64,000 nucleotides of DNA, taken from NCBI GenBank assembly GCA_965208655.1, contig CBDBPJ010000006.1, positions 117,167 through 181,166 on the forward strand, read 5' to 3'. Origin of the DNA: Gammaproteobacteria bacterium. GTDB lineage: Bacteria; Pseudomonadota; Gammaproteobacteria; Eutrophobiales; Eutrophobiaceae. The translations under genes were made by a program, and so were the position numbers. Shown in pieces: positions 13,436 to 45,485 of the stretch (position 1 is the first letter of the stretch; each line of letters begins with the position of its first letter). The notes beneath the pieces are model-generated. The model ran no database searches, was not told the DNA's origin, and saw only the letters and a list, made by a program, of their open reading frames with translations.

Positions 13436-13485
13436 AGTCCAATCCCGTATTTTATTCATGTGTGGCCAATATCGGGCAGCGCACA

Positions 13486-14910: not shown

Positions 14911-14948
14911 CAGTGTGTCCTCCGTTGCCGGTGTGGGTTATAACTCCC

Positions 14949-16399: not shown

Positions 16400-17090
16400 T
16401 GGCTGGGATTATCCTCTGGCGGCCAGCAATGCCGGGTCTGCCGGTGGCGGCGGTTTGCGCCAGGGAGTAACAAGCCGACAACCAAACCCGCCGGACACCT
16501 GTACCCGTAATCAGTCGCCGAGAGACAATCCCGCGGCTTGCGCTTGCGATTTCCGGTCGTCACGCGTCGCCGTATCCACGCGCAAGGCAATCATCCGACC
16601 CTGCGGCGCATGTAATGTGGTGCGTTCAGCCATTGGAATTTGTCAGCGGATCATCAGGCCCCGTTACAAACGGGGGGATCAAAGGGGGGACGCCCCCCTT
16701 GCAAGCACCCTGTATTCATGCGCAGCATGTAATACAGGGGTATACTCCCCTCCGTGAACGACAGTAACCGACTGTGAACGTGTTGTTCCCTGTAAGGATA
16801 ATCCGATGGTCTGTCGGATAACATCTCACAAGGCGTATCCGGTCGTTCGATTAGCGGGCGCTTATCCATCGTTGCCCACCCGGCCAGGCGGTTCACCCAA
16901 TACCGCATGAGCCGGAGCCGGCTGGCGCGTTTGGCCTGGTTCTTCTTGTACAACCTGTCCAAATCAACAACCAGGGCACGCAGGTCCACCCCTCGCAATA
17001 CGGCCCGAAGTCCGCCAGCAACGCCTCGCTAATCAGGGCAACCGCATACGTTCGGATTCTGCCACAGTGAACAGCAATCCGGCTGGAAAG
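16400..17090 (-). mobile_element. Degenerate mobilization module copy B
   Basis: Homolog of the small ORF (VDLRALVVDLDRL...NQAKRASRL), oriT-like GCAAGGGGGCGTCCCCCC region and frameshifted mobC. Confidence 0.65.
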
Positions 17091-18125
17091 CCCACCTCGT
17101 CTTTTGCGCAACTGGTCATTCCCGCAGCTTGCGCAGGACAATAACCCGGATTCATAACGTATGCGGTGATCCTGTCTGCGGAGTGAAAAAAAAACTTGAC
17201 TGCGCTGTCCATGGACTATACTTAACAGTAAGAGTACTGCTCTTGAGTAAGTGGGAGATTACGTCATGTCTGTGACCTGGTGTAACGCTTATTTTTCAGT
17301 CGGCAGGACTCATCCGATGCGTTTCATCCGCGGATGGCGCCTGCAGGCAACAACACTGCTTCTGGCAGCGACAGCCTTCTTTTTACCTGCCGTCTCATCC
17401 GCCCAGTCGATCACCGGTTTCACCCTTAACGACGTGGGTCCTGTCCAGGGTATAGAGCAGCTCACTGTGCAGTTCATGACCATCGCCGATGATGTTCCCT
17501 CGTCGGTTATGGGCGTTTACCCGCTGCGCATCGAGGACCGCGACACCGGGTACGGGACAGGTTTTACACAGGGGCTCGGCACGCTGTCGATGGGCGGGGA
17601 TGTCGGGATGGAACCGCGCGGGTGGATGGCGGGGGTGGGGGTAAAAGGCGATATCCTCGACCGCTCGAGCGTGACCGGCCCGGATCTGGCGCTGGTCGGC
17701 GATGCGTTATGGCGCTCGAGGTCGTTGGCGCAACCCGGGGAGCGCGTATCCTCGCTTGTGGCCACGACGCACCTGCGGCTGGGCATTGAGAGCGGCTGGA
17801 CGTACGCACTGCCGAGGGGCGGTTCCTTGCGGCCGCGCCTGGAAGCCGGGGCGCGCCGGGACGGCGCCGGTGCCCAATCCGCCTTCGGGGTGGTGCTGGG
17901 TGGCGGGATCGCCTGGAAGCATCCGCGTCTGGGCCTTGCGTTGGACGTATCGGGGAGGGCGCTGGTCTCGTATGAGGCCGGCGGCATCCGGCGCCGGGGC
18001 CTGGCGGCGGAACTGATATTGCTCCCGCACGCGGGGCACGACGTCGGTCTGGAGGTCACGGCTCGCTGGTGAACCGGAGCCCGTCCGTCAGGCCTGTTTT
18101 AACCCGGATATCCCATTGATGCGAT
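16590..18125. repeat. ~1.5 kb inverted repeat arm 1 (partner ~34270-35785)
   Basis: Shares mob module, intergenic region and a near-identical 273-aa ORF with the partner in opposite orientation. Confidence 0.9.
17251..18072 (+). CDS. Short exported protein with autotransporter-like beta-strands
   Basis: Signal peptide (…PAVSSA); PDLALVGDALW, LRLGIES, GARRDGAGAQSAFGVVLGGG, C-terminal LEVTARW. Confidence 0.65.
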   Translation: MGDYVMSVTWCNAYFSVGRTHPMRFIRGWRLQATTLLLAATAFFLPAVSSAQSITGFTLNDVGPVQGIEQLTVQFMTIADDVPSSVMGVYPLRIEDRDTGYGTGFTQGLGTLSMGGDVGMEPRGWMAGVGVKGDILDRSSVTGPDLALVGDALWRSRSLAQPGERVSSLVATTHLRLGIESGWTYALPRGGSLRPRLEAGARRDGAGAQSAFGVVLGGGIAWKHPRLGLALDVSGRALVSYEAGGIRRRGLAAELILLPHAGHDVGLEVTARW

Positions 18126-18194
18126 GCGCGCGCAGGATTCTGATGTGCGCCTTCCCTGGCGGCCACAAGACAAGCGAGGACGTATCAAGCGCAT

Positions 18195-18504
18195 TAACAC
18201 TTTCCTCTCCTGGCATCTCGGTTCCTCTGCTGTGTAGACGCAGCCGAGGTTAATGGAAAGTGGGTCAATGTTCAGTTGCCGCAGCGGGTCATTTTTGCAG
18301 TGCCGTTAACACCTTGTCTTTGAGCATTGACCTCCTCCCTGTAACCGGGTCCAGCTGTCGCGTATAATGTTCCCGGAAACAACGATCCATCAATCAGATT
18401 AGATAATAGACAAAGTGATAACTTAATGATCTAATAACACATTAATATATTATAATATCAATGACTTATAAATTTCATAGGACGGATTTCAAATCCGTCC
18501 CCGG
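18195..18504 (-). mobile_element. Island terminal region with att site (18480-18502) and arm-type motif (18410-18422)
   Basis: Reverse complement of 32210-32492; ends in GGACGGATTTCAAATCCGTCCCC. Confidence 0.8.
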
Positions 18505-29457: not shown

Positions 29458-32262
29458 ATGGGAAAGAACAGTGAAAACCTATTCGGTGACCGGGATTGGC
29501 TTATATTCGGAAAGTTCGAATCCCAGCACAGCCTGATATCCCAGGTTTCCCGCCCGGCGCTGATCGGGAAACTGAACCGGTCTGCGCAGGGAGTGTTGAC
29601 CCTGATTGTCACGCCTGCAGGTTATGGAAAATCAACTCTCCTCTCTCAATGGTTCAGATCACTGACAGCTTCAGACCATATCGCCGCGTGGCTGACCCTG
29701 GATGAAAGCGACCGCGTAGCGCACCAGTTCTGTTCCCATATCGTACTGTCCCTCTGTTACACGGGAGCGGAGATGGGCGCGCTGGAAAAGCTTGCCGAAC
29801 AGGAATTTATCGACGTGCCGATAGACGCGGTGATCCGGACACTGTCGGCAACCCTGGCCAGGCAAAGCAAGCCTGTCATCATCATAATCGAAGACTACCA
29901 CCGGGTAGGTGACGGCCATATCGACACCGTCATGGAAAAAATCCTTGACCTGTCCACGGAGTCCACCCACTTCGTGGTGAGTTCCCGGGAGAAGCCGGGT
30001 TTCAACTTCTCCGGTCTCAAGGCCAACGGCCTGGTGCAGGAGTTCGACAGTAACGACCTGCGTTTCAGTATCGAGGACACCTGCCGGCTGTTTCCGGACG
30101 ATTGCAAAAAGTCCGAACTGAAAACCCTGGCCAGGAAAACCGAGGGCTGGGCTGTCGCTCTGCAACTGGCGCGCTCTATCCTTGATGATGAAACCTCGCT
30201 CGCCAATGTAATCCAGAACCTGTCCGGCGTGACCGACGACCTGGCCGAGTATCTCAACCAGCAAATCTATGGCGGGCTCTCCGATGAGATAAAACAGGTG
30301 CTGCGGCAGACTTCGCTGCTCGACCGCTTCAACGTCAGTCTGGCCAATGCCGTGTGCAAACGTATCGACTGCCTGGACATCCTCGACCGGCTTAAACGGC
30401 GCCACTCATTGATCGTCTCGACGCAAAGGGAAACGAGCTGGTACCGCTATCATCACCTGTTGCTGCAATTTCTCAACAACGAACTGGAACGGGTCGAGCC
30501 GGAACTCATCCCCACGCTGCATACACGCGCCGCCGACTGGTATGAGCGTAACAACTTCCCCGCACTGGCCGTCAAACACGCCTGCCTTGCCGGAAACCTT
30601 GCCCAGGCGTCGCGCATAGTGGAAGACGCCGGTGGCTGGGAGCTTATCCTGTTCGGCGGAATCCCGTCATTCAGGCGGCTTATCGATTCGTTTTCCATTA
30701 CGGATTTCTCAGAGTTTCCCCGGATTGAGATTGCCCGGATTTATTACCTGATAAAGAATGGAGATATTCTCCAGGCCCAGCGCTTCTACCACCGTCTGCT
30801 GGAGACCAACCAGCGTCTGCTTGCCGATAACAGCGAGGCTGCGCGCGCATTAACACGGGATACCGTCTTGATCGGCGCGCTACTGGATGTGTACGAGGAT
30901 AAAATTACTGCCCGGGATGAACTGGAGGAGATTGCCGGCATTTCGGTCAAGCTGGCGCACTCCGATGCGGTCGGGCACTCAATTGTCACAGCCTGCTCTG
31001 CAGTATCCGCCCTGAACATCGGCAGCTTCAGGGAAGCCCTGGACTACGCTACCCACTGCTGCCGCTACATGCGCGAGATAAGCTGTATGCCGGGGTTGAG
31101 TTATGCGTTGATCCACCAGGGACGCGCTTCTCTCTACCTGGGCCAGTTCCGGGAAGCCGGCGCTATCTTCACAGAAGTGCTGGAGATGATCGAAGAGAAT
31201 TTCGGTGCGGAGAGCAACCTCAAGGCTGTTGCGGAAATACTCACGGCGTCTGCGGACTATATCACCGACCGGGAAACATTCGACCAGGAACGCCTCACGG
31301 AGGCGCTGATACAGATGGAACATTACGACGGCTGGTTCGATATTTACGCGGCAGGCTACGGCACGGTTGCATCAATTGCCTACAGGCGGGCGGGCCTGGG
31401 CGCAGCCAGGGATATATTGCAGCGGGGCCGGCGCATGGCGGAAGTTCGTTATCTACCGAGACTGGGTGAATTCATCGATGCCTGTGAGTACCTGTACCTG
31501 GCGCGCTCCGGTGAATTGCAGGAGGCCCGGACGCTGGCAAGACTGAAAAAACTGAGTTTCAACCCGGATGCGTCGAATTCCGTGAACTGGTGGCGCGATC
31601 ATCTTGTGGGGACCGCCGAAGGTCTCATGGCGCTTGCCTCGCACAGTAACAGGCGAGCCCTGGAGGTGGCCGGCGCGCTGAGCAATATCGCCCGCAGCGG
31701 CAATAACCTCTGGCATGAGATGGAAGCCTCCCTGCTCATGTCCCTGGCACTGCTCGCCGGCAGGCAGGACGAGCGCGCCTTTGCCGGCCTGACGGACACG
31801 CTGGACATCGCGGCCAAGGAAGGTGCTTACCGCATATTACTGGATTTCGGCAAACCGCTTGAGGAACTCCTGTCGCGCCTCTATCGCCTGCAGCGCGGTA
31901 ACCTGCGCCTCAGCAGCTTTACCGGCAGTTTTGTCAAGGACTGCCTGGCGCGCTATTACAAGACCCCGTACCAGCTCAGGGAAAAACCGCCGGAAGCGCT
32001 GCTGCTCAGCCCGCGGGAACTCGAGATACTCCAGGAACTTGCGCTGGGCTTTTCCAACAAGGACATTGCCCGCATGCTCGACATGACGGAAAACACGGTC
32101 AAGTTCCACATGAAAAACATCTTCAAGAAGCTCGACGTGGACAATCGTTTACGCGCAGTATCCACCGGCCAGGAGATGGGCCTGATCTCAAAATGCCGGG
32201 AAATCGTCCGGGGACGGATTTCAAATCCGTCTCGTGAAATTCATAAGCCATTGATATTATAA
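29458..32262 (+). CDS. MalT-like LuxR-family (LAL) regulator
   Basis: Walker A PAGYGKS, AWLTLDE, C-terminal LSPRELEIL...SNKDIA..L...ENTVKFH. Confidence 0.9.
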   Translation: MGKNSENLFGDRDWLIFGKFESQHSLISQVSRPALIGKLNRSAQGVLTLIVTPAGYGKSTLLSQWFRSLTASDHIAAWLTLDESDRVAHQFCSHIVLSLCYTGAEMGALEKLAEQEFIDVPIDAVIRTLSATLARQSKPVIIIIEDYHRVGDGHIDTVMEKILDLSTESTHFVVSSREKPGFNFSGLKANGLVQEFDSNDLRFSIEDTCRLFPDDCKKSELKTLARKTEGWAVALQLARSILDDETSLANVIQNLSGVTDDLAEYLNQQIYGGLSDEIKQVLRQTSLLDRFNVSLANAVCKRIDCLDILDRLKRRHSLIVSTQRETSWYRYHHLLLQFLNNELERVEPELIPTLHTRAADWYERNNFPALAVKHACLAGNLAQASRIVEDAGGWELILFGGIPSFRRLIDSFSITDFSEFPRIEIARIYYLIKNGDILQAQRFYHRLLETNQRLLADNSEAARALTRDTVLIGALLDVYEDKITARDELEEIAGISVKLAHSDAVGHSIVTACSAVSALNIGSFREALDYATHCCRYMREISCMPGLSYALIHQGRASLYLGQFREAGAIFTEVLEMIEENFGAESNLKAVAEILTASADYITDRETFDQERLTEALIQMEHYDGWFDIYAAGYGTVASIAYRRAGLGAARDILQRGRRMAEVRYLPRLGEFIDACEYLYLARSGELQEARTLARLKKLSFNPDASNSVNWWRDHLVGTAEGLMALASHSNRRALEVAGALSNIARSGNNLWHEMEASLLMSLALLAGRQDERAFAGLTDTLDIAAKEGAYRILLDFGKPLEELLSRLYRLQRGNLRLSSFTGSFVKDCLARYYKTPYQLREKPPEALLLSPRELEILQELALGFSNKDIARMLDMTENTVKFHMKNIFKKLDVDNRLRAVSTGQEMGLISKCREIVRGRISNPSREIHKPLIL

Positions 32263-32573
32263 TAGTTTAATGGGTTATTAAATCATTACGTTATCACTTT
32301 GTCTATTATCTAATCTGATTGATGGAGCGTTGTTTTCGGGAACATTATACGCGACAACTGGACCCGGTTACAGGGAGGGGGTCAATGCTCAAAGACAAGG
32401 TGTTAACGGCACTGTAAGAATGACCCACTTTCCAGTAACCTCGGCTCTGTCTACCCGGCAGAGGAACCGAGATGCCAGGAGAGGACAGTGTTATGGCGTA
32501 AAATCAGGTGGAATTATACTTTACAAACCAAGCTTAGTTTCCTATAATCTCAGTATAGACTTTAAACCGGCGA

Positions 32574-33420
32574 TTGAAAATGTCTGTGTTGAATGCCAAA
32601 TACATGCAAGATGAAGCCGCAGCCTTTGCGCACGTTGAAGGTATGCTCTGGCCACACGGCCCGGTCTGCACTGCCTGCGGTTCGCTGGATAATGCCTACC
32701 ACCTGAAAGGTGTTCGCTCCAAACCCTCAAAGAAAAACCCCGACGGCAAGGTACGTCACGGCCTGTACAAGTGCAAAGACTGCGGCAAGCAGTTCACCGT
32801 CCGCATAGGAACGATTTTTGAGTCCAGCCATATTGATTTACACCTGTGGCTGCAAGCCATACACCTGATTACCAGCAGCAAGAAGGGCATCAGTGCAAAC
32901 CGGTTGCACCGCACCCTGGGCATTACCCTTAAAACTGCCTGGTTCCTGGGACACAGAATCCGCGAGGCCATGCGGGATAACGCGCCGGCTATCTTCGGCT
33001 CCGGCGGCGGCATCGTTGAACCGGAAGAGATCGTTATCGGCACTGCCCGTGAACGCGCCCCCGGCGCACGCGGTTACGCCCACAAGAACCAAGTCCTGAT
33101 CCGGGTTGACAGGGACAGCAAGCGGGCCAGGCGCAGGGTCGTTGACACCCTGAAAGCCAGTGAGATTATACCCACCCTGAAAGCCAGTGAGATTATACCC
33201 ACCCTGAAAGCCAGTGAGATTATACCCACCCTGAAAGAGAACATTGCCAAAGAAGCACGACTGATGACGGATGAGGCCAAGCACTACAGCAAGGCCGGCA
33301 ACCACTTTGCCGGACATGATACTGTCGAACACGGTGCCGGTAAGTAGGTCAAAGCACTGGATGGCGACATCCACACCAACACCGTTGAAGGCTACTATGG
33401 CACCTTACCCGTTGGCTGAA
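32574..33420 (+). pseudogene. IS1595-family transposase (premature stop at 33345, internal triplication)
   Basis: WPHGPVC..CG, YKCKDCGKQFTVRIGTIFE.S, SKKGISA..L.R.LG....TAW, MTDE, HTNTVEGY after the stop; element likely extends to ~34120. Confidence 0.85.
33147..33237 (+). repeat. 27-bp tandem repeat x3 (TLKASEIIP)
   Basis: ACCCTGAAAGCCAGTGAGATTATACCC three times plus a partial unit. Confidence 0.95.
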
Positions 33421-34327
33421 TACCGGCGTTTACTACCGTTTCCAATAACATGAACAACCATAAACTCTGCGAGAACTGCCGTTTCTGGCACCGGACCGGC
33501 AAGCCGGTCGGCGAGTGCCGGATTTACCCGCCATCGAAAAACGGGCTATTCCCCAAGACCCAAAAAACAGACTGGTGCGGGATGTGGCAGGCCACAGAAA
33601 GACGATGAGGTTAAAGTCAAGTGTTGGGACTGGATGGCCTGCCCTCTGCCGCCGGCAGATGCAATGAATGACAAGAAGATACTCAAAGCCATTAACAAGC
33701 AGAAACCGCCCCGGACCGGATGGTATTACGTTGTTCTCTTTGCCGTGTTGGGCGTGCTGGGGATAATCCTGTTGGCTGTGTGGGTGCCATGGCACGTGTT
33801 GTAGTAACCGGCCTCTGGTCTGAAACACCAGTCTGCCGGGCTTTGCCCGCATTTCATTTGGAGTGCGGGCGTTTTTTTATCTGCTGGTAATGCAGGTACC
33901 GTGATAGTATGAATCACGCGATGTTGAATAACACCGGCGGCATTTATGGCGAACAGGAAAGTTGATGCCGGTAAAGAACCGCATTCACGGTTCATTCAAA
34001 ACGCTGACGAACCAGGCTGTGACGAAGACGAATGCCACTTTAACGCCACGCTGAGGAAGATCGCAAAGACTGAACCGCAGAAGAAGCACGGCAAGCGCGC
34101 AACCCGCCCCGCATAAATCCCCGTTTCTTATTCTCCCTGCGTAACCCGGACAGGGTGAACATGTGACCCTTCAGGCGGTGACACGGCCCGCAGAGCACTA
34201 TCCGTTTCGATATCTGATTAGGTCCGCCGTCAGCCCGGGGTGTGTTGTGATCCAGCGCCAGACAGCGAGCATCGCATCAATGGGACATCCGGGTTACGAC
34301 AGGCCAGCCTGACAGACGGGTTCCGGT

Positions 34328-35149
34328 TCACCAGCGTGCCGTGACCTCCAGGCCGACGCCGTGCCCCGCGTGCGGGAGCAATATCAGTTCCGCCGCCAGG
34401 CCCCGGCGCCGGATGCCGCCGGCCTCATACGAGACCAGCGCCCGCCCCGATACGTCCAACGCCAGGCCCAGACGCGGATGCTTCCAGGCGATCCCGCCAC
34501 CCAGCACCACCCCGAAGGCGGATTGGGCACCGGCGCCATCCCGGCGCGCCCCGGCTTCCAGGCGCGGCCGCAAGGAACCGCCCCTCGGCAGTGCGTACGT
34601 CCAGCCGCTCTCAATCCCCAGCCGCAGGTGCGTCGTGGCCACAAGCGAGGATACGCGCTCCCCGGGTTGCGCCAACGACCTCGACCGCCATAACGCATCG
34701 CCGACCAGCGCCAGATCGGGGCCGGTCACGCTCGAGCGGTCGAGGATATCGCCTTTTACCCCCACCCCCGCCATCCACCCGCGCGGTGCCATCCCGATAT
34801 CCCCGGCCATCGACAGCGTGCCGAGCCCCTGTGTAAAACCTGTCCCGTAGCCGGTGTCGCGGTCCTCGATGCGCAGCGGGTAAACGCCCATAACCGACGA
34901 GGGCGCGTCATCGGTGATGGCCATGAACTGCACAGTGAGCTGCTCTATACCCTGGACAGGACCCACGTCGTTGAGGGTGAAACCGGTGATCGACTGGGCG
35001 GATGAGACGGCAGGTAAAAAGAAGGCTGTCGCTGCCAGAAGCAGCTTTGTTGCCTGCAGGCGCCATCGGCGGATGAAACGCACCGGATGAGTCCTGCCGA
35101 CTGAAAAATAAGCGTTACACCAGTGCACAGACATGACGTAATCTCCCAC
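34328..35149 (-). CDS. Paralog of 17251-18072 (autotransporter-like beta protein)
   Basis: Same length (273 aa), near-identical sequence. Confidence 0.65.
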   Translation of the reverse strand: MGDYVMSVHWCNAYFSVGRTHPVRFIRRWRLQATKLLLAATAFFLPAVSSAQSITGFTLNDVGPVQGIEQLTVQFMAITDDAPSSVMGVYPLRIEDRDTGYGTGFTQGLGTLSMAGDIGMAPRGWMAGVGVKGDILDRSSVTGPDLALVGDALWRSRSLAQPGERVSSLVATTHLRLGIESGWTYALPRGGSLRPRLEAGARRDGAGAQSAFGVVLGGGIAWKHPRLGLALDVSGRALVSYEAGGIRRRGLAAELILLPHAGHGVGLEVTARW

Positions 35150-35269
35150 TTACTCAAGAGCAGTACTCTTACTCTTAAGTATAGTCCATGGACAGCGCAG
35201 TCAAGTTTTTTTTTCACTCCGCAGACAGGATCACCGCATACGTTATGAATCCGGGTTATTGTCATTCCA

Positions 35270-35940
35270 GCCGGATTGCTGTCCACTGCGGCAGAATCCG
35301 ATAGTATGCGGTTGCCCTGATTAGCGAGGCGTTGCTTGCGGATGTTGGGGCCGTATTGCCAGAGGTGGACCTGCGTGCCCTGGTTGTTGATTGGGACAGG
35401 TTGTCCAGGATGAACCAGGCCAAACGCACCAGCCGGCTCCAGCGCATGCGGTATTGGGTGGACCGCCTGGCCAGGTGGATGCCGATGGAAAAGCACCATT
35501 TCATCGAACGACCGGATACGCTTCGTGATAGGTTATCCGGCAGACCACCGGATAATCCTGTCAGGGAACAACGCGTTCACAGTCGATGACTGTCGTTCAC
35601 ACAGGGGCAAGCATACCCCTGTATTACATGCTGCGCATGAATACAGGGTGCTTGCAAGGGGGGCGACCCCCCCTTTGATCCCCCCCGTTTGTAACGGGGC
35701 CTGATGATACATTGACAGTTGCCGATGGCTGAGCGCGCTACATCACACACGCCGCCGGGCCGGCTGATTGCCCTGCGCGTGGCTGCGGCGACCCGGGCAG
35801 AGTGGCTGGCGCGGGCCAACGCGGATGGTCTGTCTCCCGGCGACCGGTCATGTCCACAGGGGAATGTCGGATGGTCCCTGACACCCGCATCCACGCGCAG
35901 GGTAGTGATCCTGCCCAGCTCGGGTTGTGCGGCTTTACAA
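35270..35940 (+). mobile_element. Degenerate mobilization module copy C, plus an opposed mobC 5' remnant (35886-35938, minus strand)
   Basis: Small ORF homolog, oriT-like region, MAERATSHT..LIALRVAAATRAEW; 35886-35938 matches 39972-40024. Confidence 0.65.
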
Positions 35941-36208
35941 CAACATCCTGCTTGTCGCCGGTTCCCTGGTGGGCGCCACCGGCATCATCCTCACCAACAG
36001 CATGTGCAAGGCCATGAACCGTTCCCTGGCCAACGTGCTGCTGGCGGAAGCGGACGCTCCTTACGACCTGACAATGTGTCGCAAGCAATAAGTATGTGAC
36101 TGTATTCCGGGTCAAGCCCGTACTGACGAACGGGGAGCGGGAATGCCTATCCCGGCATCTCGTTAATCGGAGGCATTTCTCCTGGTTCCGGCCTGGCCAG
36201 GTCAGGGT

Positions 36209-37786
36209 TCAAAACATAAAATCGGCATTATCCAGGTTGGCGCTATCGAAATCCGACAGGATGATAGTGGTCAAATAATCAGCGCCTGCCAAGTCTATCC
36301 GCACGTTATTCCCAACACTGACGATGTCAAGATCGTTGACGCTGCTGATGCCGGAAAACTCGCGCAGGTCGATCACGTCCTCACCATTGGTAAAGTCCCG
36401 TATGATGCCACCGCCAAGGTCGCTGGGGAAAAACTGGAACCTGTCATCGTCGGGGCCGCCATATAAAATATCCATATCGTTGCCGTCAACAACCAGAACA
36501 TCCTCCCCCGGTCCTCCCTTCATCACGTCAACACCGGCACCGCCGGTCAGGGTATCATCTCCCTTGCCCGCGAAGATCCGGTCATCGCCGTTACCGCCGT
36601 ACATCCTGTCGTCACCGCCGGCCGGTCCACCGTACAAGGTATCGTCGCCCTCTTCTCCCCGGAGGATATTATCTCCACCATCCCCAGCCAGCGTGTCGTT
36701 ATGCTTGCTGCCGACAAGATGCTCAATACCCGTCAGCGTATCGCCCTGGGCATCACCGTTCTTGACTCCCCTGGCATCGTGCAGGCGCACCAGCACCCCG
36801 CGCGCGGAGTCCTCGTAAGAGGCGACATCACTGCCCGCGCCGCCATCCAGCATGTCAGCGCCGGGGCCACCGTTAAGCGTGTCATCACCGGCGCCGCCCT
36901 GCAGGGTGTCATTACCGGTCCCGCCTTCGAGTCTGTCATCACCGGCCCCGCCATTGAGCCTGTCATCGCCGGCAAGTCCCTCCAGGATGTCATTGCCGCT
37001 GACACCGTCTATGATATCGGCGCCGGCGCTGCCGGTCAGGGTATCCGCGCGCGAGGTGCCGGATTGCGTATTGGCGCCAGAGCCAGTGTTGCCGGAATCT
37101 GTATTATCATCGGGGGGCGCCTGAATTTGAATCGTTTCTGTCACAGCTCGCCCGTCGGGCAGAGTCAAGCTGACAGTAATTTGAGTTGCCGACTGATACT
37201 CTAAATCAACCGAAGACCGGTCGCCGTCGTTGTAGTACAACCTGAGCTCTGCCGTGTCATCGCCGGTTTTCTCGTAAGTATATCCGCCGGAATCCGTTGT
37301 TGTTCCGTCAGTTTCACTGAAACGGGTGACAGAGGTGAATTCAAACGTGGACTGCAGCACAGAGAGTTTCTGTCCGGCCACCGCCTGGTGAAATACATCC
37401 TGGTCGGCCGGCGCAAAACCACGCGCTGCTTGAGGGGGTGTAACCACGTCAGGCCGTGGCGGGAATGTCACCTCCACCGTTACACTTGTCCCATCAGCCT
37501 GATAAAAGTAAAGGCTGACCTGGGTAGCTGACAAGTAGTTGAGGTCAACCGAAAACCAATCGCCATCATCGTAGTACAATTCGAGCCTGCCCTGGTCGGC
37601 CCCGGTTTTCTCATAAGCATATCTGCCGGGATACGTTGTGGCTCCGTCATTGTCCCTGAAATGGGTGGCGGAGGTGAATTCAAACGTGGACTGCAGCACA
37701 GAGATTTTCTGCCCGGCCACCGTCTGGTAAAACACACCCTGGTTGGCCGGCGCAAACCCGTTCATCTCGTTGTCATGATTCGACAT
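36209..37786 (-). CDS. RTX-like calcium-binding secreted protein with two tandem N-terminal domains
   Basis: Many GGxGxDxL nonapeptides; duplicated GFAPA.Q.VF.Q.VAGQK.SVLQSTFEFTS domain; C-terminal ADFMF. Confidence 0.88.
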   Translation of the reverse strand: MSNHDNEMNGFAPANQGVFYQTVAGQKISVLQSTFEFTSATHFRDNDGATTYPGRYAYEKTGADQGRLELYYDDGDWFSVDLNYLSATQVSLYFYQADGTSVTVEVTFPPRPDVVTPPQAARGFAPADQDVFHQAVAGQKLSVLQSTFEFTSVTRFSETDGTTTDSGGYTYEKTGDDTAELRLYYNDGDRSSVDLEYQSATQITVSLTLPDGRAVTETIQIQAPPDDNTDSGNTGSGANTQSGTSRADTLTGSAGADIIDGVSGNDILEGLAGDDRLNGGAGDDRLEGGTGNDTLQGGAGDDTLNGGPGADMLDGGAGSDVASYEDSARGVLVRLHDARGVKNGDAQGDTLTGIEHLVGSKHNDTLAGDGGDNILRGEEGDDTLYGGPAGGDDRMYGGNGDDRIFAGKGDDTLTGGAGVDVMKGGPGEDVLVVDGNDMDILYGGPDDDRFQFFPSDLGGGIIRDFTNGEDVIDLREFSGISSVNDLDIVSVGNNVRIDLAGADYLTTIILSDFDSANLDNADFMF

Positions 37787-37875
37787 GCTTTCTCTCCACG
37801 CTGATTATCATTCGGTCTCATAATACATTATAACTTCAGCCTGAAACACACATCTCATACCATTCGTTGTCTGTG

Positions 37876-38067
37876 TCAAAAAGTCCAGTTGCCGGTCTCT
37901 ATCCTGACGGTATCAACTGCGGGGTCGAAATCCCTGATGGTATCCAACCCGTTATCGCCGGCGGTCTGGAACACAAATACGTCCGCGCCGGAACCGCCGC
38001 TGAGCGTATCGTCGCCCGCGGTGCCTGTGAGAGTCTCATTGCCACCGGTGCCTGTTATGTCTGCCAT
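37876..38067 (-). pseudogene. RTX/T1SS-substrate remnant
   Basis: MADITGTGGNETLTGTAGDDTLSGGSGADVFVF...DTIRDFD. Confidence 0.65.
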
Positions 38068-38189
38068 TAACGTTGCCTCACGTGTAAACCTTCACGCTCA
38101 GGACTCTGGACACCCCGGCGCGATTCATGTAACCAGCCGGGGATACAATGTGCCTGTCCCCAAAACTTACGCGTACGCGCGCTGCAGGA

Positions 38190-38660
38190 CCGGATGATTG
38201 CCCTGCGCGGGGCTGCGGCGACCCGGGCAGAGTGGCTGGCGCGGGCCAACGCGGATGAGCTGTCTCTCGGTGACCGGTTACGCATGCCGGTGTCTGGCGT
38301 CTCAGGTGGCCGGCTTGTTACTCCCCGGCGCAAACCGCCGCCCGCGGCTGACCCGGCATTGCTGGCCGCGATTGCGCGCATCGGCAACAATGGCCGGGAG
38401 AGATTGAGTTGTTGCACCGGCTCATCAACATTCACCGGGTATTAAGGAACCTGGCGGCATCCCATGATGATTACGTTCTATGCCGGTAATGCATCCGGGC
38501 CGTGGCCTACCTGGAGAAAGACACGGACTACAAGGGTCGGCCACGCGCCGGCGTTGACGTGCGGCGCGGGGACCCGGTGCTGGTCCGGCAGATCGTCAAT
38601 TCCCTTGACTTCAAGGACCACACCACCGCCGCGGTGATTGCCTGGGCACCGGAGCCAGTC
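38190..38660 (+). mobile_element. mobC: mobC + relaxase 5' remnants (module copy D)
   Basis: PPPAADPALLAAIARIGNN (MobC); AYLEKDTDYKGRPRAGVDVRRGDPVLVRQIVNSLDFK..TTAAVIAWAPE (MbeA/MOB_HEN-like motifs I-II). Confidence 0.75.
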
Positions 38661-38726
38661 ATTCATAGCGACACCTTCCTGTTCTTGGAAATTTATACTA
38701 CCATACGCCCTCTTTATCCAAAGTAG

Positions 38727-39623
38727 ATGGAAACCTCAATGAAATTGCCAGCGTTCTGGTTCTTCACAGCCAGTGCCATATTGACAGTCCTCGCCACACC
38801 TGGCATTGCAGGCGCAGAGCAGGCAAGCTCGGGGTGGTACGTCGGCGCCGGAGCAGGCACAAGCTGGGCTTCCACAATTGATCAGGCGGGTTGGAACCGG
38901 GACCCCTATTGTTACCCGGATTCCTGCACCCAGCCGGGCCCCGGTCAGGAAATAGAAGGGGTTTCCATACCAGGATACCTCTGGAAGTATGACCTTGATG
39001 CGGATACCGGCAGCGCATTCGAAATCTCAATCGGTCGCTATTTCAACCGTGTCCGCCTGGAAATTGCGGCCGCACAGCGAAAAAACAACGTCGAGCAGAC
39101 GTTCTCCGACATCACCTTTCTGGACGGACGACGCGCCAGTCAGCCACCCGGCAACATGGTCACGTCAAATTTCGAGTCCAGCATCGATGATTTCATCTCG
39201 CGCACCCTTTCGTTCAACGCGTACTACGATTTCCAGAACACATTCGAAACGTTAACGCCCTACCTGGGGATCGGGCTGGGCGCTGCGTTTGCCGAGGTGT
39301 CGGGAGTACACTACACCACCCATTACCAGGACCTGGCGGCTCCTTCACGGGACCTGTCGTTTTATAACAGCAGCCAGGATACCGATATGACGGATACCAT
39401 CCTGTTCGGTAGCATCCATGCCGGTGCGGACTACCGCCTCGGCCACAGAACAATAGCCGGTTTGAAGATGACCTGGTCCATTATGGATGACATCAAATAC
39501 ACAGGTTCCTACTCCAGGCACCCGGCCCACAGAGAGAACCCCGATTTCACCAATCACACCACGTTCAGCGATCTCCGGCAGTGGTCGGTGATGTTCACGC
39601 TGAAATACCTGTTGGACCGCTAG
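38727..39623 (+). CDS. Outer-membrane beta-barrel protein (opacity/Msp4/OmpA-membrane-like)
   Basis: Signal peptide; GWYVGAGAG; NAYYDF; TPYLGIGLGAA; aromatic-rich C-terminal strand. Confidence 0.8.
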   Translation: METSMKLPAFWFFTASAILTVLATPGIAGAEQASSGWYVGAGAGTSWASTIDQAGWNRDPYCYPDSCTQPGPGQEIEGVSIPGYLWKYDLDADTGSAFEISIGRYFNRVRLEIAAAQRKNNVEQTFSDITFLDGRRASQPPGNMVTSNFESSIDDFISRTLSFNAYYDFQNTFETLTPYLGIGLGAAFAEVSGVHYTTHYQDLAAPSRDLSFYNSSQDTDMTDTILFGSIHAGADYRLGHRTIAGLKMTWSIMDDIKYTGSYSRHPAHRENPDFTNHTTFSDLRQWSVMFTLKYLLDR

Positions 39624-39959
39624 GGACTGGCCGTCACCCGCGTGCTGTGAACGCTGATGTCCCGACCCTGTCCGCTTTTTGTCCCGTGTGCAGCGCGTTC
39701 ACGTTCTTTTATCCCTGTTCCAGCTTGGGCCACCGGCCCTTGTAGGACACGAACACCCCGAGCACTGCGTTTTCTTCTATAATTGCGGTCGGTCTCGGGT
39801 TGCCGCTGCCATTGCCCAAGGTAATGGGGGCACCGTTCCCGACGCCGAGCAGTTGGCATCATGCGGACGGATATACACCTCTGCTTCACCGGGATTACGG
39901 GCGGGTTTGGGTCGTTGGCATAGGAATCATTCATCCGGTAGCTTGATGCTGATTTTAAT

Positions 39960-40523
39960 TGGCACTGGGCCGGCATCCACGCGCAGGGTAATGGCCTTGT
40001 CCAGCTCCGGTTGTGCGGCTTTACGTTTCGGCATGATGTCCGAAGTACCATCGTGCCCCGTTGCCAACGGGGGGGTCAAGGGGGGGTGCCCCCCTCTTGC
40101 GAGACTCCTGTATCAAAACGCCGTTTTGTATACAGGAGTAGTCTCGCCCCTGTGTGAATAACAGTATTTGACCGTGTGCTCTTTCGTCCCTGGCGGAACC
40201 ATCCGGTTGGATGTCCGGCGACTCATTGAAACATAAAGCGGGTCAGTAGGTGAGCTGGTATTGGTCTCTGGCCGTCCACCCGGTCAGGCAGGTTGTCCGC
40301 TTCCGCAGGAGCCGGATCCGGCTGGCGCGCCTGGCCTGGTTCGTCTTGTACAACCCGGCCCAATCAACAACCAGGGCACACAGGTCAACCCCTGGCAACA
40401 CGGCCCGATGCCGGCAACCACCGCCTCGTTGATGACAAACACCCACCCCCCGCCGCGCACCCGATGACCGCCGTCGTCTCAATGCCGGCTGGAATCAGTC
40501 TTCATCTTCGCTGGACTACGCAA
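39960..40523 (-). mobile_element. Degenerate mobilization module copy E with IS21-like terminal at 40523
   Basis: Reverse homolog of 380-850; end reads TGCGTAGTCCAGC on the minus strand, like position 223. Confidence 0.65.
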
Positions 40524-40902
40524 TCTTGGGGGTGGCAGCTTTGCCGATAGAATGGTTCGCCCCTCTCTTAAACACGGCTTCGCAATGAGCCATAATGAGG
40601 TTTTGTTCATTAAACCTGTATTGATGGTGTGGAAACATTTCACCGTCTATATTTTTTGTCGTTACTTTAAACATGACCAGCCACTGCCAGGCACAGGAAA
40701 CAAGTTATCCACAAGCCTGTCATATTTAACATAACACCCGATCCTTGCACTTAGGCGGGTTTTCTACAGGATGCTCAGCGGCGCGACCCACAGCACCAGC
40801 GCCTGTCAGGCTGATTGCCAGATCCAGTGATCCCTGAGCCGAGCACGGCTGCCTCAAACTACCGCCCCCTGACCCAGACTGATCCGGACGTTGTACTGAA
40901 GA

Positions 40903-42033
40903 CTAATTTCGTGTAACCAGAATTTTCTTAACCCAGCCGCCACCATTGCTGGTTTCGACCCTGATGAAACCGTTGTTTTCTTCACCCATGAAGATCATGC
41001 CATCGGACTTTTTCAGTTCGCCAAGCTGTTCCGCTCCAGTGGATGAGTCAGAGAGTAATTTCACGTTATCTATCTTTGGGTAGAGAATGTCACCTTCAGC
41101 AAATACAGCCCCGGCTTTTTTGGACCCGCCGGCAGCAGCTTCCTGTGCCAATGTGCCGACATCACGCTGCAAGCTCGGCTGACCGCGCACTGCCCTGACG
41201 ATGTGGTTGTAATTGTCCATGAGGCTTGCAACAATAATCTTGCCTTCATTGGTATTGCCATACCCGCCTAAACCGGCTCCAGCGCTGCCACCTATCAGGA
41301 CACCGCCCAGCGCCAAATCCGCTTTCTTGGAACTGCCGGTCGCCGAAGCGACTTGCACTCCCGAGCGCGCGTCAGAGACCAGCATACTGGTTTGCGCCTC
41401 TTTGAATTTAAGACCACCGACCAAACCGCCAATGAGAGACCCCGCGGAGCCGAACACACCACCTAACGCGGCACCGACCCCGCCACCCAAAGCGCCGGCG
41501 TCACTTTCCGAAAACACCACTGCAGGCCGCAGAAGAAAATCCGCGCTGACTATCTGACCGCCGCCGACGTTCGAGTTCTCTCGAAGCTGACCCGCTTCCA
41601 TCAGCGCGCGTTCCTGCATCATATTGTTCATTCCCTGACCGCGTTCTACGACGATGAAACAGTTGGACTGTTGTATCATCATGCGAACCACGCCAACCGG
41701 TGATTGCAAGTCATATTGCAACAATGCGCTAATGACAAAATCCTGCGGTTCTATGACAGCCATCGCGGCCATCGGTTGAGCACATTGTTCCAAGGTGCTT
41801 TCACTGCCTTGCGTCGAACCTGATGGACCGGCGGCGCCTTGTGCAACACTGCCGCCTTCCCCCTGTTTCATTTCGGTAACACCCTGGGCCTGCGCCAGCG
41901 ACATAACACCGGCAACCGGTAAAGCAATCAAAATGGTCTTCAAGGTTTGCCGAATAATAGCCAGAGAATTCAGGCTGAATTTTGTACCGTAGAAACTATG
42001 ACGCCTAAGGGCTTGCCTGCTTTTGTGTCTCAT
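40903..42033 (-). CDS. CsgG/HfaB-family exported protein with C-terminal SH3-like domain
   Basis: RMMIQQSNCFIVVERG.GM..M.QER.L; GQIVSADF; SH3-like tail. Confidence 0.75.
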   Translation of the reverse strand: MRHKSRQALRRHSFYGTKFSLNSLAIIRQTLKTILIALPVAGVMSLAQAQGVTEMKQGEGGSVAQGAAGPSGSTQGSESTLEQCAQPMAAMAVIEPQDFVISALLQYDLQSPVGVVRMMIQQSNCFIVVERGQGMNNMMQERALMEAGQLRENSNVGGGQIVSADFLLRPAVVFSESDAGALGGGVGAALGGVFGSAGSLIGGLVGGLKFKEAQTSMLVSDARSGVQVASATGSSKKADLALGGVLIGGSAGAGLGGYGNTNEGKIIVASLMDNYNHIVRAVRGQPSLQRDVGTLAQEAAAGGSKKAGAVFAEGDILYPKIDNVKLLSDSSTGAEQLGELKKSDGMIFMGEENNGFIRVETSNGGGWVKKILVTRN

Positions 42034-42393
42034 ACTACTTCTCCTAATATGCTTATTTGATGAGTAAGCGAAAGTCATCGTCTGTACACTCCGTTCCGTC
42101 GTGTGCGATCACGAATTTGCCGCTCCGTAGTCGATGGCACAATGATGCGGGCGCTACCCCGCGGGTAATTTGGACACTGTAGCGCATACAACCCCTATCA
42201 TCCAGTCCGACGGGAGTGTAAATGCGTCCATCATCATGGATAGTTTCCAGTTCAGGCGCATCATTACCTGGTTCCCTGTTACACCCAGTGACTAAATAAC
42301 TGTTCCTAACCATCGATCACTTTAAGGGAACTCGGGGGACATTCGTGGATCAGATCAATTAGACGATTTATCCACCCACGAAGAGGTCACCCG

Positions 42394-43320
42394 ATGAAAA
42401 CGAGTATAACATTGTATCGAGCACAAGGCCGTCGTCTTGCGCGTCAGGTTCACAAGAGCCGCGATGCGCTGCTGGTACGCCGTATCCTGGCCGTGCTATA
42501 TCTGGCCGACGGGCAGTCGGTGAGTGCGGTGGCGCGGCGTCTGGCCGCGGCGCGCTCGTCGGTAAGGCGCTGGCGGGCGCTTTGGCAGAGTTATGGGGAA
42601 GCCGGGCTGGCCCCGTGTCGCGGCGGACGCCCCGTGAGGACGATGAGGGCGCCGGTGCTGACGGCATTACGGGAGTTGGTTGATACCTCACCCCGGCAAC
42701 TGGGTTACCTGCGCAGTCGCTGGAGCACGGAATTGCTGGCGCAGGCAGTAAATCAACGCTTGGACACCGCCATCCATGCCTCGACCGTGCGCCGTTGGTT
42801 GCCCCGGTTGGGGTTTGGTTATCGGCGTGCGTGCCCGACATTGCACAAGCGCGACCCGCACAAAGATAACAAACTGGCTGTTATCAACCGGGCGCTACGC
42901 CGTTGTAGCGCCAAGCAGGCCCTGTTCTTCGCCGATGAGGCCGACATGGAACTGAACCCCCGCATCGGCTATGACTGGATGCGGCGCGGGCAATAACGCA
43001 AGGTGCCCACCCCCGGACAGAACCAACGCTGCTACCTGGCCGGGGCGCTGCCTGCCAACACCGGCAAGCTGGTCTGGGTACAGGGCCCGAAGAAAAATTC
43101 CCACCTGTTCATTGCCCTGCTGGAAACCTTGCACCGCACCTACCGACGCGCTAAGCGCTTATCCTGGACAACTACATCATCCATAAAAGTCGCACTGTAC
43201 AAGAGTGGCTGGTCAACCATCCACGAGTGCGCTTGTTGTTCCAACCGGCCTGGCATCCCTGGGTGAACCGGATTGAACGCTTGTGGAAAACCCTGCACGA
43301 CACTGTGACCCGGAACCATA
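42394..43320 (+). pseudogene. IS630-family transposase (stops/frameshifts)
   Basis: HTH N-terminus; RWSTELLA; FADEAD; QPAWHPWVNRIERLWKTLHD. Confidence 0.85.
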
Positions 43321-43406
43321 CGTAAAGTTCTTGGTGATGAATTGGAAAGAGAAAAACGTAAAACCAACGACACAGAACTTATCAGATAACACTGGAAAAC
43401 AAACAA

Positions 43407-43634
43407 ATGACTGATGCCGTAATAGACAGAATCCCGGCTAATCTGGGGGGCACACCCGTCTTCACAGGCACCCGGGTACCTATCCGTATTCTGATGGAGC
43501 ATCTAGAGTCAGGATATGACCTGAGTTATTTTCTGGAGCACTTCCCCTCTGTCAGTCGTGAACAGGCTGTTCAGTTAATTGAACTGGCCATAGAAAAACT
43601 GACGGCAGATACAGAGCATGAAGTTACTGCTTGA
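43407..43634 (+). CDS. DUF433 antitoxin
   Basis: LGGTPVFTGTRVPI...FPSVSREQ. Confidence 0.85.
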   Translation: MTDAVIDRIPANLGGTPVFTGTRVPIRILMEHLESGYDLSYFLEHFPSVSREQAVQLIELAIEKLTADTEHEVTA

Positions 43635-43746
43635 CGAGCCTGTTGACCACGAGTTAGCTACCCATTTCCCTGCATCAATAAGTGCAAGAGTGTATATGCC
43701 AGACATACGAATAGGACACGGCATTCGCCTTGCCCAATGTAAATAG
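43618..43746 (+). pseudogene. Truncated DUF5615/PIN toxin
   Basis: MKLLLDE start overlapping DUF433; only about 42 aa. Confidence 0.65.
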
Positions 43747-43748
43747 CA

Positions 43749-43887
43749 GGAATTCTGGGGACACAGCACTTAATTCCGCTCTATTGGTACAATAAAACCA
43801 GCAAGGAACATGTTATCCCGGCATGCCCTCCACGATAAGCCAGGACATGAGCCGCGACAGGATATAAGTGTCGTATCCCCGGAATTC
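43749..43887. repeat. MITE/REPIN-like inverted pair GAATTC(T/C)GGGGA..CACTTA
   Basis: Arms 43749-43776 and 43865-43887. Confidence 0.6.
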
Positions 43888-44029
43888 TATGCAGATTCCC
43901 ATCGCATGTTCCTGCCTCGCCGCTCCATCATGCCGACAGGGCCCCTGGTACACCGGCAACGGTTTGCATCGCCCTGGGCGGGCTGTATCGCCTGTGTGAC
44001 GGTTTTCAGGGCCGTCCTCCAGGATTCGT

Positions 44030-45211
44030 TTACCGTATAGCCGTAACGGAGGCTTTCTCAGCAGTCAGGTAACCAGCCCACTGCGCCATCAGCCGCCGCC
44101 GCAGTTCAAACAGGTCAGAGCGCTGATAGGCTGCCTCAACCCGGTTTGAATTGACGTGCGCCAGGGCCAGCTCGCACACCTCACGCGGCTGGTTGGTCCG
44201 CTCGGCGGCCCACTGCCGGAACGATGAGCGCATGCCGTGAGGCACACAGCCGATACCGGTTTCCCGGAGCAGCTTGCTGAGCGCATTCTTGCTTAACGCC
44301 TTGCAGCCCGCGCCGGGAAACACCAGCCCGGACCGGTCCGCATACCGGGATGCGTCCTTGAGTATCTCAAGCGCACGGTTTGACAACGGGACGCGGTGCG
44401 GACGTTTCGACTTCATGCTCTCCCCCGGTATCGCCCAGGTGGCGGTCTCAAGGTCGATGTCCGCCCAACGCGCCAGCCTCGCCTCGCCGGAGCGGACCGC
44501 GGTCAGCGTCATGAACTCGAAACAGGCCACGGTGGCCCAGTACGCACCGGATGACCTGACCTTCTCAATGGCTGAACCTACCTCCGAATACGGCAGGGCC
44601 TTGTGATGGTTGCGCACAACGCCGTTCTTTGGCAGCGCCGCCGACAGCGTCAGGGTCGGGTCGTCCTCCCGGTAGCCGTTGGCGATGGCCCACTTCATAA
44701 CGGCCCCGATACGCTGCTTGACCCGGCGCATGGTTTCCGTCCGGTCATGCCAGTGCGGCAGCAGGAGGGCCAGTATGTCGGACGTGGTGATGGCGTTGAT
44801 GCGTTTATGGCCTATCGTCGGCAGGGCATAGTCCCGCAGGGAGGCGCGCCACTGGTTGGCCGACTTGCCCCCGTCCCGCCAGCCTATAGCATGTATCCTG
44901 ATGACTTCCTCAGCAGCCTGTGAGAACAGCGGCATGCTCCCGCGCGGGTCGCGTCCTTTGAGTAACGCTTGGCGGTTTTCCAGAGCCTTACCTCTGGCCT
45001 CAGCCAGCAAGACAAGCGGATAGGCGCCCAGACCGATGTTGACGGGTTTGCCGTTTATCAGTAGTCTTTGAGACCAGGTCTTTGACAGGCGGCCGTTGGT
45101 CATGGGTTTGACCAGCAGGGACAGGCCATGACCGCCGCGGCCGTCGCCGTAGCGGCCCGGTTGGTTGACGGTTCTGACGAAGGAAGCTGAGAGGATTTTG
45201 GGTCGTTTCAT
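44030..45211 (-). CDS. P4-like tyrosine integrase (arm-binding + catalytic domain), intact
   Basis: YGDGRGGHGLSL arm domain, GLGAYP..LAEAR, catalytic R(SGE), K, HGMR, LAH, AAY. Confidence 0.93.
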   Translation of the reverse strand: MKRPKILSASFVRTVNQPGRYGDGRGGHGLSLLVKPMTNGRLSKTWSQRLLINGKPVNIGLGAYPLVLLAEARGKALENRQALLKGRDPRGSMPLFSQAAEEVIRIHAIGWRDGGKSANQWRASLRDYALPTIGHKRINAITTSDILALLLPHWHDRTETMRRVKQRIGAVMKWAIANGYREDDPTLTLSAALPKNGVVRNHHKALPYSEVGSAIEKVRSSGAYWATVACFEFMTLTAVRSGEARLARWADIDLETATWAIPGESMKSKRPHRVPLSNRALEILKDASRYADRSGLVFPGAGCKALSKNALSKLLRETGIGCVPHGMRSSFRQWAAERTNQPREVCELALAHVNSNRVEAAYQRSDLFELRRRLMAQWAGYLTAEKASVTAIR

Positions 45212-45485
45212 GACAGGATACCGTTATTTATTCAGTTATCACTTTGTGTAAAAGAATGTCTGATACGACGTAAGACGTCAACAGACAATAAAACAAACAA
45301 TATCAAACAGATAAGATGATATCAGGGAATGTAATGAAATGCAAAAAAACCGTCGGTGGCGGATTTCAAATCCGTCCCCGAAGCCTCTCGTTAACAAGCT
45401 GGAAAACCGGTCGTTATCCGTGCTGCGTACTTGCCATTAATGCTATAATCCAACAGAGTCGTCCGGAATATAAGGAGATATGTTT

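Follow-up and report, generated by a model that had tools for sequence, protein, structure and literature searches.

By the usual view, a tyrosine integrase of a genomic island works at a single site, and that site belongs to a tRNA gene. In genomic islands and satellite phages of the P4 and CP4-57 type, whose integrases carry an Arm-DNA-bind_3 domain (formerly DUF4102), the integrase gene lies at one end, the AT-rich attP arms contain arm-type repeats, an identity block is duplicated, and the target is the 3' end of a tRNA or transfer-messenger RNA (tmRNA) gene. The stretch considered here (the window, 64,000 nucleotides) is C6:117167-181166 of the 4.19-Mb, 10-contig genome of a sponge-associated bacterium, called G000 below; C1, C5 and the like are its contigs, and plain positions are those of the window. 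The window contains a 13.2-kb element, island A (32215-45376), that has the integrase domain architecture and the layout of the P4-type islands, whereas its attB is a palindrome present in tens of copies. We consider it highly likely that the P4-type integrase of island A and of its relatives uses this multi-copy palindrome, which resembles a repetitive extragenic palindrome (REP), as attB, island A being one member of an island family.

Island A and its family in the genome

Island A lies between two copies of a 17-bp repeat which together split the 25-bp palindrome GGGGACGGATTTCAAATCCGTCCCC. Direct reading of the sequence finds the repeat, CGGATTTCAAATCCGTC, exact at 32215-32231 and at 45360-45376, the left copy in the context GGGGA-core-TCGTG and the right copy in the context GGTGG-core-CCCC. 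With up to three mismatches allowed, the 17-mer occurs at three places in the window, on both strands at each, where 0.10 occurrences are expected, and none of 100 shuffled sequences reached six. The attL core (32210..32231, + strand) comprises the chromosomal left palindrome half GGGGA and the 17-bp identity block; the attR core (45355..45380, + strand) comprises GGTGG from attP, the identity block, and CCCC, which is the chromosomal right palindrome half. Inside the cores lie the two arms of attP, an AT-rich P'-type arm at the left (32232..32330, +), 83-85% conserved among the islands, and a P-type arm at the right (45212..45359, +) with a conserved ATGCAAAAAAACC. Each holds the arm site GTTATCACTTTGT on the + strand, at 32290-32302, 59 bp inside the left core, and at 45235-45247, 113 bp inside the right core. 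An earlier note on this DNA, made from its letters, had described the exact repeat with these flanks, an intact integrase at the right end, and an arm-type site in the same orientation inside both ends; all of this holds.

The integrase gene (44030..45211, - strand) is an uninterrupted frame encoding 393 amino acids. Its product has an N-terminal Arm-DNA-bind_3 domain (PF13356, residues 7-90, E-value 4.6e-10; score 39.9 bits, cut-off 27), a SAM-like core-binding Phage_int_M domain (PF22022, 1.3e-24) and a C-terminal catalytic Phage_integrase domain (PF00589, 1.2e-15). Three such domains on an intact frame identify it as a P4-type tyrosine integrase. The NCBIfam integrase domain model PRK09692 scores 138 bits, under its 434-bit cut-off, and the nearest phage integrases, which belong to the P4 type as well, are at most 38% identical. 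The motifs AVRSGE, HGMRSSFR, LAHV and EAAYQR, picked out by eye, stand at what may be the expected catalytic R-K-H-R-H/W-Y positions.

A tblastn search of G000 finds three copies of the integrase, with 94-100% amino acid identity, at C6:161199-162377 (island A), C6:115419-116597 (island B) and C1:419652-420830 (island C); an attR lies about 150 bp away in every case. The ratio dN/dS of nonsynonymous to synonymous substitution rates among the three genes is 0.07-0.14, so the copies are under purifying selection. At each copy the attR junction has the form ...AAAAAAACC-N5-TGG-CGGATTT(C/G)AAATCCGTC-CCCC, and the opposite island end reads GGGGA-CGGATTT(C/G)AAATCCGTC, followed by the conserved AT-rich arm. 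What the three islands have in common is confined to the left 140-310 bp (83-85% identity) and to an integrase-attR block (about 1350 bp, 91-97%), and the islands carry different cargo. Island C, of 6.0 kb, encodes a Fic/DOC protein and a MobC/NikA-like protein. As regards features of an integrative mobilizable element, Pfam searches found no relaxase, and island A is without mobilization genes.

Island B (C6:115256-135665, - strand) is inverted and 20.4 kb long, and its part within the window spans 1..18499; its integrase and attR lie outside the window, 570-1910 bp beyond the left edge, and inside it are the attL core (18483-18499) and the arm site (18410-18422). The earlier note had listed further copies of the palindrome at 18480 and, as a variant, at 4581. 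Both are present, but the first is followed by an AT-rich arm and an arm site on the other strand, and is therefore the attL of island B, not a solo palindrome. The second, at 4583-4606, is a variant with a 6-nt loop, GGGGACGGACTTAAGTCCGTCCCC, within the cargo of island B; either that cargo comes from this genus or island B is composite.

With at most one mismatch, GTTATCACTTTGT occurs 10 times in the 4.19 Mb, and nine of these occurrences are at island ends: five are attL-type, three are attR, and one is a second copy at the remnant on C7. There are two remnants consisting of an attL only, D at C6:450787 and E near C7:257160 (C7:~255476-257173), and both keep the conserved arm and arm site with the palindrome variant GGAATTGAATTCC. 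No REP-type integrase lies near D or E, and D is 6 kb from a contig end.

The palindrome and its occupied and empty sites

How widespread is the palindrome? With up to two substitutions, the 17-mer is found in G000 at 25 places by its forward pattern and at nine more by its reverse pattern only, and almost every match is framed by GGGGA...TCCCC. The frame GGGAC-N13-GTCCC occurs in 44 copies, 27 of them with a perfect inner palindrome, and the form with N12 in 46, against 1-9 for other spacers and 6 in a shuffled genome. Of the stems in the arrangement GACGGA-N7-TCCGTC there are 25 instances, where shuffles give 0.2, and of the N6 form 24; the N5, N8 and N9 forms do not occur. In the cases examined the palindrome lies just 3' of stop codons. 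Of the 23 species genomes that represent the genus, 16 contain the exact pattern GGGACGGATTTNAAATCCGTCCC, in up to 67 copies, and reversed-pattern controls gave none. An integrase of at least 89% identity is found in only three of the 23 (three copies in G000, seven in G034, two in G016), so that 13 of the 16 palindrome-bearing genomes, with 1-67 copies each, are without a close integrase. The palindrome thus pre-dates the island and is independent of it, and these integrase-free genomes argue against 'empty' palindromes being scars of excision.

Intact palindromes of the exact type number 6, 4 and 28 in the three integrase-bearing genomes, against 16-67 in several integrase-free relatives, a contrast that may reflect chance or phylogeny. 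As regards inverted doublets (REP doublets forming hairpins, REPINs), two close palindrome pairs (C1:145558 and C1:145629) were met incidentally. The palindrome often stands beside other short repeats (GGGGTCAGAGTAAAAA...; AAATCCGTCCCCGGACGCA...GGGGGCGG), for example at C1:226654, C1:463543 and C5:41621, and at about 13800-13900 of contig C63 in G016, which suggests mosaic intergenic elements like the bacterial interspersed mosaic elements (BIMEs).

Does the attachment site lie in an RNA gene, as the P4 precedent would have it? ARAGORN found no tRNA or tmRNA within the window, and none was found at five REP-type loci, so the usual target of P4-type islands is missing. A scan of the window with Rfam at gathering thresholds gave no matches, which rules out a known noncoding RNA (ncRNA) as the att site.

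The integrase is found next to many different palindromes. In four genomes, 13 integrase-proximal junctions represent 12 different sites, each adjoining a palindrome half, and the integrases are 89-100% identical. The site of island C is empty in G016, where 17 bp, forming an intact palindrome, are common to the left flank (C6:12297-15314) and the right one (C6:15298-17046), and in G014, where the intact palindrome is at 3005313-3005329. Ten foreign integrase-proximal junctions (L056-L063, L065 and L070) were also compared with their orthologous sites in G000. Five of these sites have an intact palindrome with the same flank (C7:133389 for L056, C5:115767 for L057, C1:133131 for L059, C3:536718 for L060 and C1:671408 for L061), and a sixth junction, L065, is island C's own site in G000. 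The site of island C is thus occupied in two species; insertion sites differ between the closest species. A scan of metagenomes added one duplicate site (L079, the same as L063) and two distant relatives. The sister species G034 has the full island A twice, each nearly full length and between palindrome halves at other loci, at C1:716433-729557 (97-98% identity) and 2949986-2962992 (94-96%). It follows that the 13-kb unit has moved as a whole from one palindrome to another. The earlier note had inferred that the integrase may use a multi-copy REP as attB, and these comparisons support it on each point that it named as a possible refutation: the palindrome is dispersed, relatives have the empty site, the att is not part of a tRNA or known ncRNA, and homologous integrases do not sit at unrelated targets.

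A probable change of target

Where might such a specificity come from? A 83% identical integrase, L064, occurs in a genome that also has seven REP-type copies; more distant relatives (L066, 58% identical; L067, L068 and L081, 55-57%) occur in metagenome-assembled genomes labelled as other phyla. The attR core of L064 is ATGGCGGA-CTCTCTC-TCCGCCA and that of L067 is TTGGCGGA-CTCCCTC-TCCGCCA, and those of the other relatives are similar. For L067, a tRNA-Ser(GCT) at the opposite extremity of the locus has the 14 nt CTCCCTCTCCGCCA as its 3' end, and L066 is paired with a tRNA for selenocysteine (tRNA-SeC). For L064, a tRNA-Ser(GCT) 33 kb away (G031:C1:2732466-2732556) ends in the matching 14 nt, and the arm beside it has ATTGATAATATTAATA and GTTATCACTTT at the places taken by ATTGATATTATAATA and GTTATCACTTTGT in attL arms of the REP type. 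A maximum-likelihood tree groups the 12 REP-type integrases in a single tight clade, to which L064 is sister; the other tRNA-Ser/SeC types fall outside.

The tRNA-type core is TGGCGGA-N7-TCCGCCA, and the stems GACGGA/TCCGTC of the palindrome resemble its half-sites. The sister islands at tRNA-Ser(GCT) and tRNA-SeC thus have in common with the REP-type islands the integrase lineage, the arms, TGGCGGA, and a geometry of half-site, 7 bp and half-site; they differ in having the overlap CTC(T/C)CTC with TCCGCCA at a single-copy target, whereas the REP-type islands have TTTNAAA and TCCGTC at a multi-copy palindrome. From the homologous arms and the shared TGGCGGA it follows that arms and left half-site were kept, that the 7-bp overlap was replaced, and that TCCGCCA became TCCGTC(T/C). 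We propose that the REP specificity is recent and that the ancestor was specific for tRNA-Ser(GCT), the 7-bp overlap and one half-site base having since been replaced. GACGGA-N7-TCCGTC would offer two good half-sites at the right spacing, a plausible reason for its capture. Retargeting from a tRNA, as the earlier note supposed, is supported by these sister integrases; the resemblance of the core to a tRNA T-loop, on which that note had based the idea, is not. The half-sites match the acceptor end of tRNA-Ser, TCCGCCA, so the likeness is to the 3' end of the acceptor stem (TGGCGGA/TCCGCCA). A TTTCAAA loop in a CGGA/TCCG stem departs from the T-loop pattern, and ARAGORN, as said above, found no tRNA. 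In G034, three tRNA-Ser 3'-end repeats (L076, L077 and L078, at C1:2674714, 2699609 and 2732466) lie within 58 kb beside a tRNA-Ser(GCT), which points to several islands in tandem at this tRNA-type site.

For the reaction itself, the attB consensus would be GGGGACGGA-(A/T)TTNAA(A/T)-TCCGTCCCC, in which the stems GACGGA and TCCGTC would act as two core-type half-sites and the 7-nt loop as the overlap for strand exchange. The attP would be TGGCGGA-N7-TCCGTC(T/C) between AT-rich arms, with the GTTATCACTTTGT sites presumably bound by the N-terminal arm-binding domain. Integration would split the palindrome into attL (GGGGA-core-island) and attR (island-GGTGG-core-CCCC), and since the palindrome is asymmetric only at its central base, the island can enter either way round. 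The variants with ATTNAAT indicate where the crossover may lie. In these the attR reads GGCGGT|ATTGAAT and the attL GACGGA|ATTGAAT, and this difference at the base left of the loop puts that base outside the exchanged segment. On the right, the second island A copy of G034, with TCCGAC in attL and TCCGTC in attR, sets the other bound, so that the crossover falls within the loop plus TCCG, 11 bp. At the tRNA-type sites the identity block starts exactly at the 7 bp, and the simplest reading would be that the 7-bp overlap is the palindrome loop.

Several observations weigh against the palindrome being the attB of these integrases. Six REP-type overlaps (TTTCAAA, TTTGAAA, TTTTAAA, ATTGAAT, ATTTAAT and ATTCAAT) are found with near-identical integrases. 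Classical tyrosine recombination needs matching overlaps, so each variant would need either its own attP or some tolerance of mismatch. One attL in G034 has GGGCGGA on its chromosomal side instead of GGGGACGGA, so recognition is not strictly for the consensus, and for four of the ten foreign junctions (L058, L062, L063 and L070) no palindrome is demonstrable at the orthologous G000 site. No excisionase, or recombination directionality factor (RDF), was found by Pfam in islands A and C or by PHROGs in the small open reading frames (ORFs) of A and C, and none is conserved across the three islands, the integrase being the only conserved gene. As to a REP-associated tyrosine transposase (RAYT), G000 has one Y1_Tnp gene (C1:152410-152733), which has no palindrome at its flanks, the nearest being about 2.5 kb off, and without such an association 'REP' is descriptive only. 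All of the genomes involved are apparently metagenome-derived assemblies, so that some junctions could in principle be assembly choices. The sequencing runs X17 and X18 were seen as Logan assembled contigs, in which rare excision products would not show, and among the 15 joints listed for them there is none from 32231 to 45360, nor the reverse.

One might go further, tentatively and with rather less than even confidence, and suppose a multi-target integrase, about 17% diverged from the tRNA-Ser enzyme, that would accept any GACGGA-N7-TCCGTC, whose attP overlap would be rewritten from the last palindrome visited, and which would drive inversions of kilobases to megabases in a symbiont genome through recombination of its att sites with far-off palindromes or further island copies. 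Rewriting of the overlap, if it is true, would explain the six overlap variants among integrases that are more than 89% identical. Overlap type and integrase tree are discordant, L057 grouping with island A and L059 with islands B and C, a pattern for which classical rules do not account.

Could the palindrome halves belong to the island rather than to the target? On this idea they are the island's own terminal repeats, and solo palindromes are footprints of excision or transposition. It is true that 17 of the 25 palindrome nucleotides are identical at both ends and that the attP core is itself nearly palindromic; yet an occupied site has one split palindrome and its unoccupied orthologue one intact palindrome, the outer 5 nt (GGGGA / CCCC) are derived from the chromosome and not from the island, and 13 genomes of the genus have palindromes with no close integrase found, all of which makes the idea extremely improbable. 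A palindrome that serves as target might instead be recognised as a folded single-stranded hairpin or cruciform, like the attC of integrons, and not through duplex half-sites. The 25-nt target is a hairpin perfect but for its central base, and integron integrases are tyrosine recombinases that pair single- and double-stranded partners, according to PMC4792948. However, the sister integrases use a duplex tRNA-Ser 3' end, TGGCGGA-N7-TCCGCCA, with homologous arms, the protein has the arm-binding architecture of the λ/P4 type, and attL and attR each combine one chromosomal and one island half as in canonical two-strand exchange; we judge recognition of a folded strand to be very unlikely. The suggestion that the islands are inert relics, owing their positions to rearrangement and vertical descent, concerns activity and not the choice of target. 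The missing RDF, a cargo full of transposase fragments, an in-frame TAG in one of the two integrase copies of G016, the two attL-only remnants, and the occupation of island C's site in two species are what one would expect of relics. They have to be set against full-length open integrase frames in 3 of 3 copies in G000 and 8 of 8 in G034, the low dN/dS values, the 13-kb island at three sites in two species with 94-98% identity, and sites that vary between the closest species. Inert relics thus seem unlikely to us, and we favor integration at a multi-copy palindromic attB by islands that are probably still active.

Genome inversions, cargo and comparison with known systems

The earlier note had predicted that excision of island A would rebuild the target palindrome. 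The att halves are as it described, but the ancestral locus would not be restored, as the flanks of island A, the malT-like gene on the left and a segment Y on the right, are not adjacent in the five relatives checked. After the malT-like gene, G016, G014 and G018 have an intact palindrome and, next to it, a segment X. Segment Y follows a segment Z, and the Z-Y link is an intact palindrome in G016 and an ordinary terminator hairpin in G014, G015, G007 and G034. In G000, X is joined to Z via an intact palindrome at C6:110053-110077. For island B, the flank of its attL, W, follows V via an intact palindrome in G014, G015 and G016, but the neighbour of V in G000 is U, with the join at C1:480966-480990. 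The prediction that the end of Z which flanks island B's attR was ancestrally beside U was borne out in contig C63 of G016, where the two overlap by 20 bp at an intact palindrome; in G014 they are 78 bp apart, with the order unchanged. From the joins in the relatives the ancestral state is Y'-a-Z-b-U and V-c-W.malT-d-X, and G000 has V-REP-U and X'-REP-Z-[B inverted]-W.malT-[A]-Y. To convert one into the other would take two inversions, one nested in the other: b x c, of ~1.5 Mb on the G014 scale, and a x d, with orientations taken from the single large contig of G014. Each of the four breakpoints falls exactly within a palindrome; of the two junctions of an inversion, one carries an island and the other an intact palindrome.

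How might an island bring about an inversion? Candidate routes are excisive recombination of attL with attR between a pair of island copies in inverted orientation, recombination of an att site with a solo palindrome, and homologous recombination between islands followed by precise excision, and by one such route the islands would have had a causal role in the two inversions. It is possible, if somewhat unlikely, that exchange between palindromes, independent of the islands, produced the inversions, or that these are artefacts of assembly, and that the islands were inserted later by chance, in each case at one of the two junctions. The reciprocal junctions are both plain intact palindromes, there are no breakpoints inside an island, and in this 10-contig genome V-REP-U is on a separate contig, as that account would allow. 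On the other hand, islands occupy two of the four junction palindromes as compared with about 5 of about 90 genomic sites (a rough binomial probability of about 0.02), and a 25-bp repeat is a poor substrate for homologous recombination. As to assembly, a contig of run X17 matches the assembly from 31000 through attL to 32244 without differences, which is only 13 nt beyond the core. A contig of run X18 (record 17, 8209 nt) follows 31000-32231 and has a further 1615 nt with no place on 31000-46500; it leaves the assembly exactly at the last core base, and may represent an alternative junction, un-inverted or excised, in the sample. Word depth in X17/X18 is 109-182 in the integrase bins and about 5-12 in the flanks, a sum over contigs and organisms and not a copy number.

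The gene adjoining attL encodes a MalT/LuxR-type regulator (29458..32262, +). The malT-like stop codon is TAA in G016 and G014 and TGA in G001; in G000 it is AAA, at 32191-32193, and the ORF is extended by 23 codons via attL to a stop codon inside island A. The island itself carries, from the left, a fragment of an IS1595-family transposase, either cargo or debris (32574..33347, +; Zn_ribbon_IS1595 at 1.2e-11, DDE_Tnp_IS1595 only over profile positions 28-105 of 153), then an internal module (35348..40406) with diverged inverted repeats, 71-75% identical, at its ends (35348-35685 and 40069-40406). In the module are genes for an RTX-repeat protein (36209-37786, -) and an outer-membrane beta-barrel protein (38727-39623, +), and these two genes are also bracketed by a 55-nt direct repeat, D4 (35884-35938 and 39970-40024). 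An X17 contig omits 35908 to 39995 (4086 nt), matching D4, so a form without that segment exists. Related modules of about 400 bp occur in islands B and C and beside other integrases (C1:96044-96590 and C1:753161-753707). Further to the right are a cargo gene for a CsgG-like/SH3 lipoprotein (40903..42078, -) and a transposase fragment with helix-turn-helix (HTH) domains only (42394..42996, +; HTH_33, HTH_32, HTH_29).

Insertion sequences (IS) that target REPs include IS1397/ISKpn1 and IS621. Another is ISPpu9 of Pseudomonas putida, as described in PMC8450116. These elements likewise use a dispersed extragenic palindrome as a safe landing site in many copies, but they have transposases of the DDE or DEDD/IS110 type and a length of about 1-2 kb, whereas the islands here have a tyrosine integrase with attP arms and are 6-20 kb long. 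A transposase does not appear to be the mobility enzyme of island A, the transposase ORFs being fragments and only the tyrosine integrase being conserved. A further difference is that att sites would be regenerated, and precise excision would be possible in principle. A search of full-text literature, with subscription journals mostly outside its coverage, and passages of PMC3390384 yielded no tyrosine-integrase island with a REP-type attB.

Integron integrases with attC, and the elements that exploit XerCD and dif, also have a tyrosine recombinase acting on short imperfect palindromes, with a target that is not a gene but is borne by the host or by an array. Integrons, however, use a folded single-stranded attC and have neither arm sites nor the arm-binding domain of the island A integrase. 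For the integrative elements that exploit dif, the target is single-copy and the arm-binding architecture is absent.

What follows from the comparison? An enzyme family known for tRNA targets has moved to a repeat with tens of copies, and so has many landing sites; a multi-copy attB lets the island family multiply within one genome, with three copies here and seven in the sister species. REP-like repeats, whose roles are still debated, are thereby linked to island traffic and inversions in host-associated bacteria. For builders of integrase tools, an enzyme able to tolerate or track varying 7-bp overlaps at a simple palindrome would also be of interest. The 'before' (a tRNA-Ser enzyme, 83% identical, in the same genome) and the 'after' are both preserved, so that the steps of the target switch are testable. 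By comparison with the P4-type islands at large, then, the protein is an ordinary integrase of its kind, and what is unusual is the multi-copy REP-like attB together with a preserved tRNA-Ser-specific sister.

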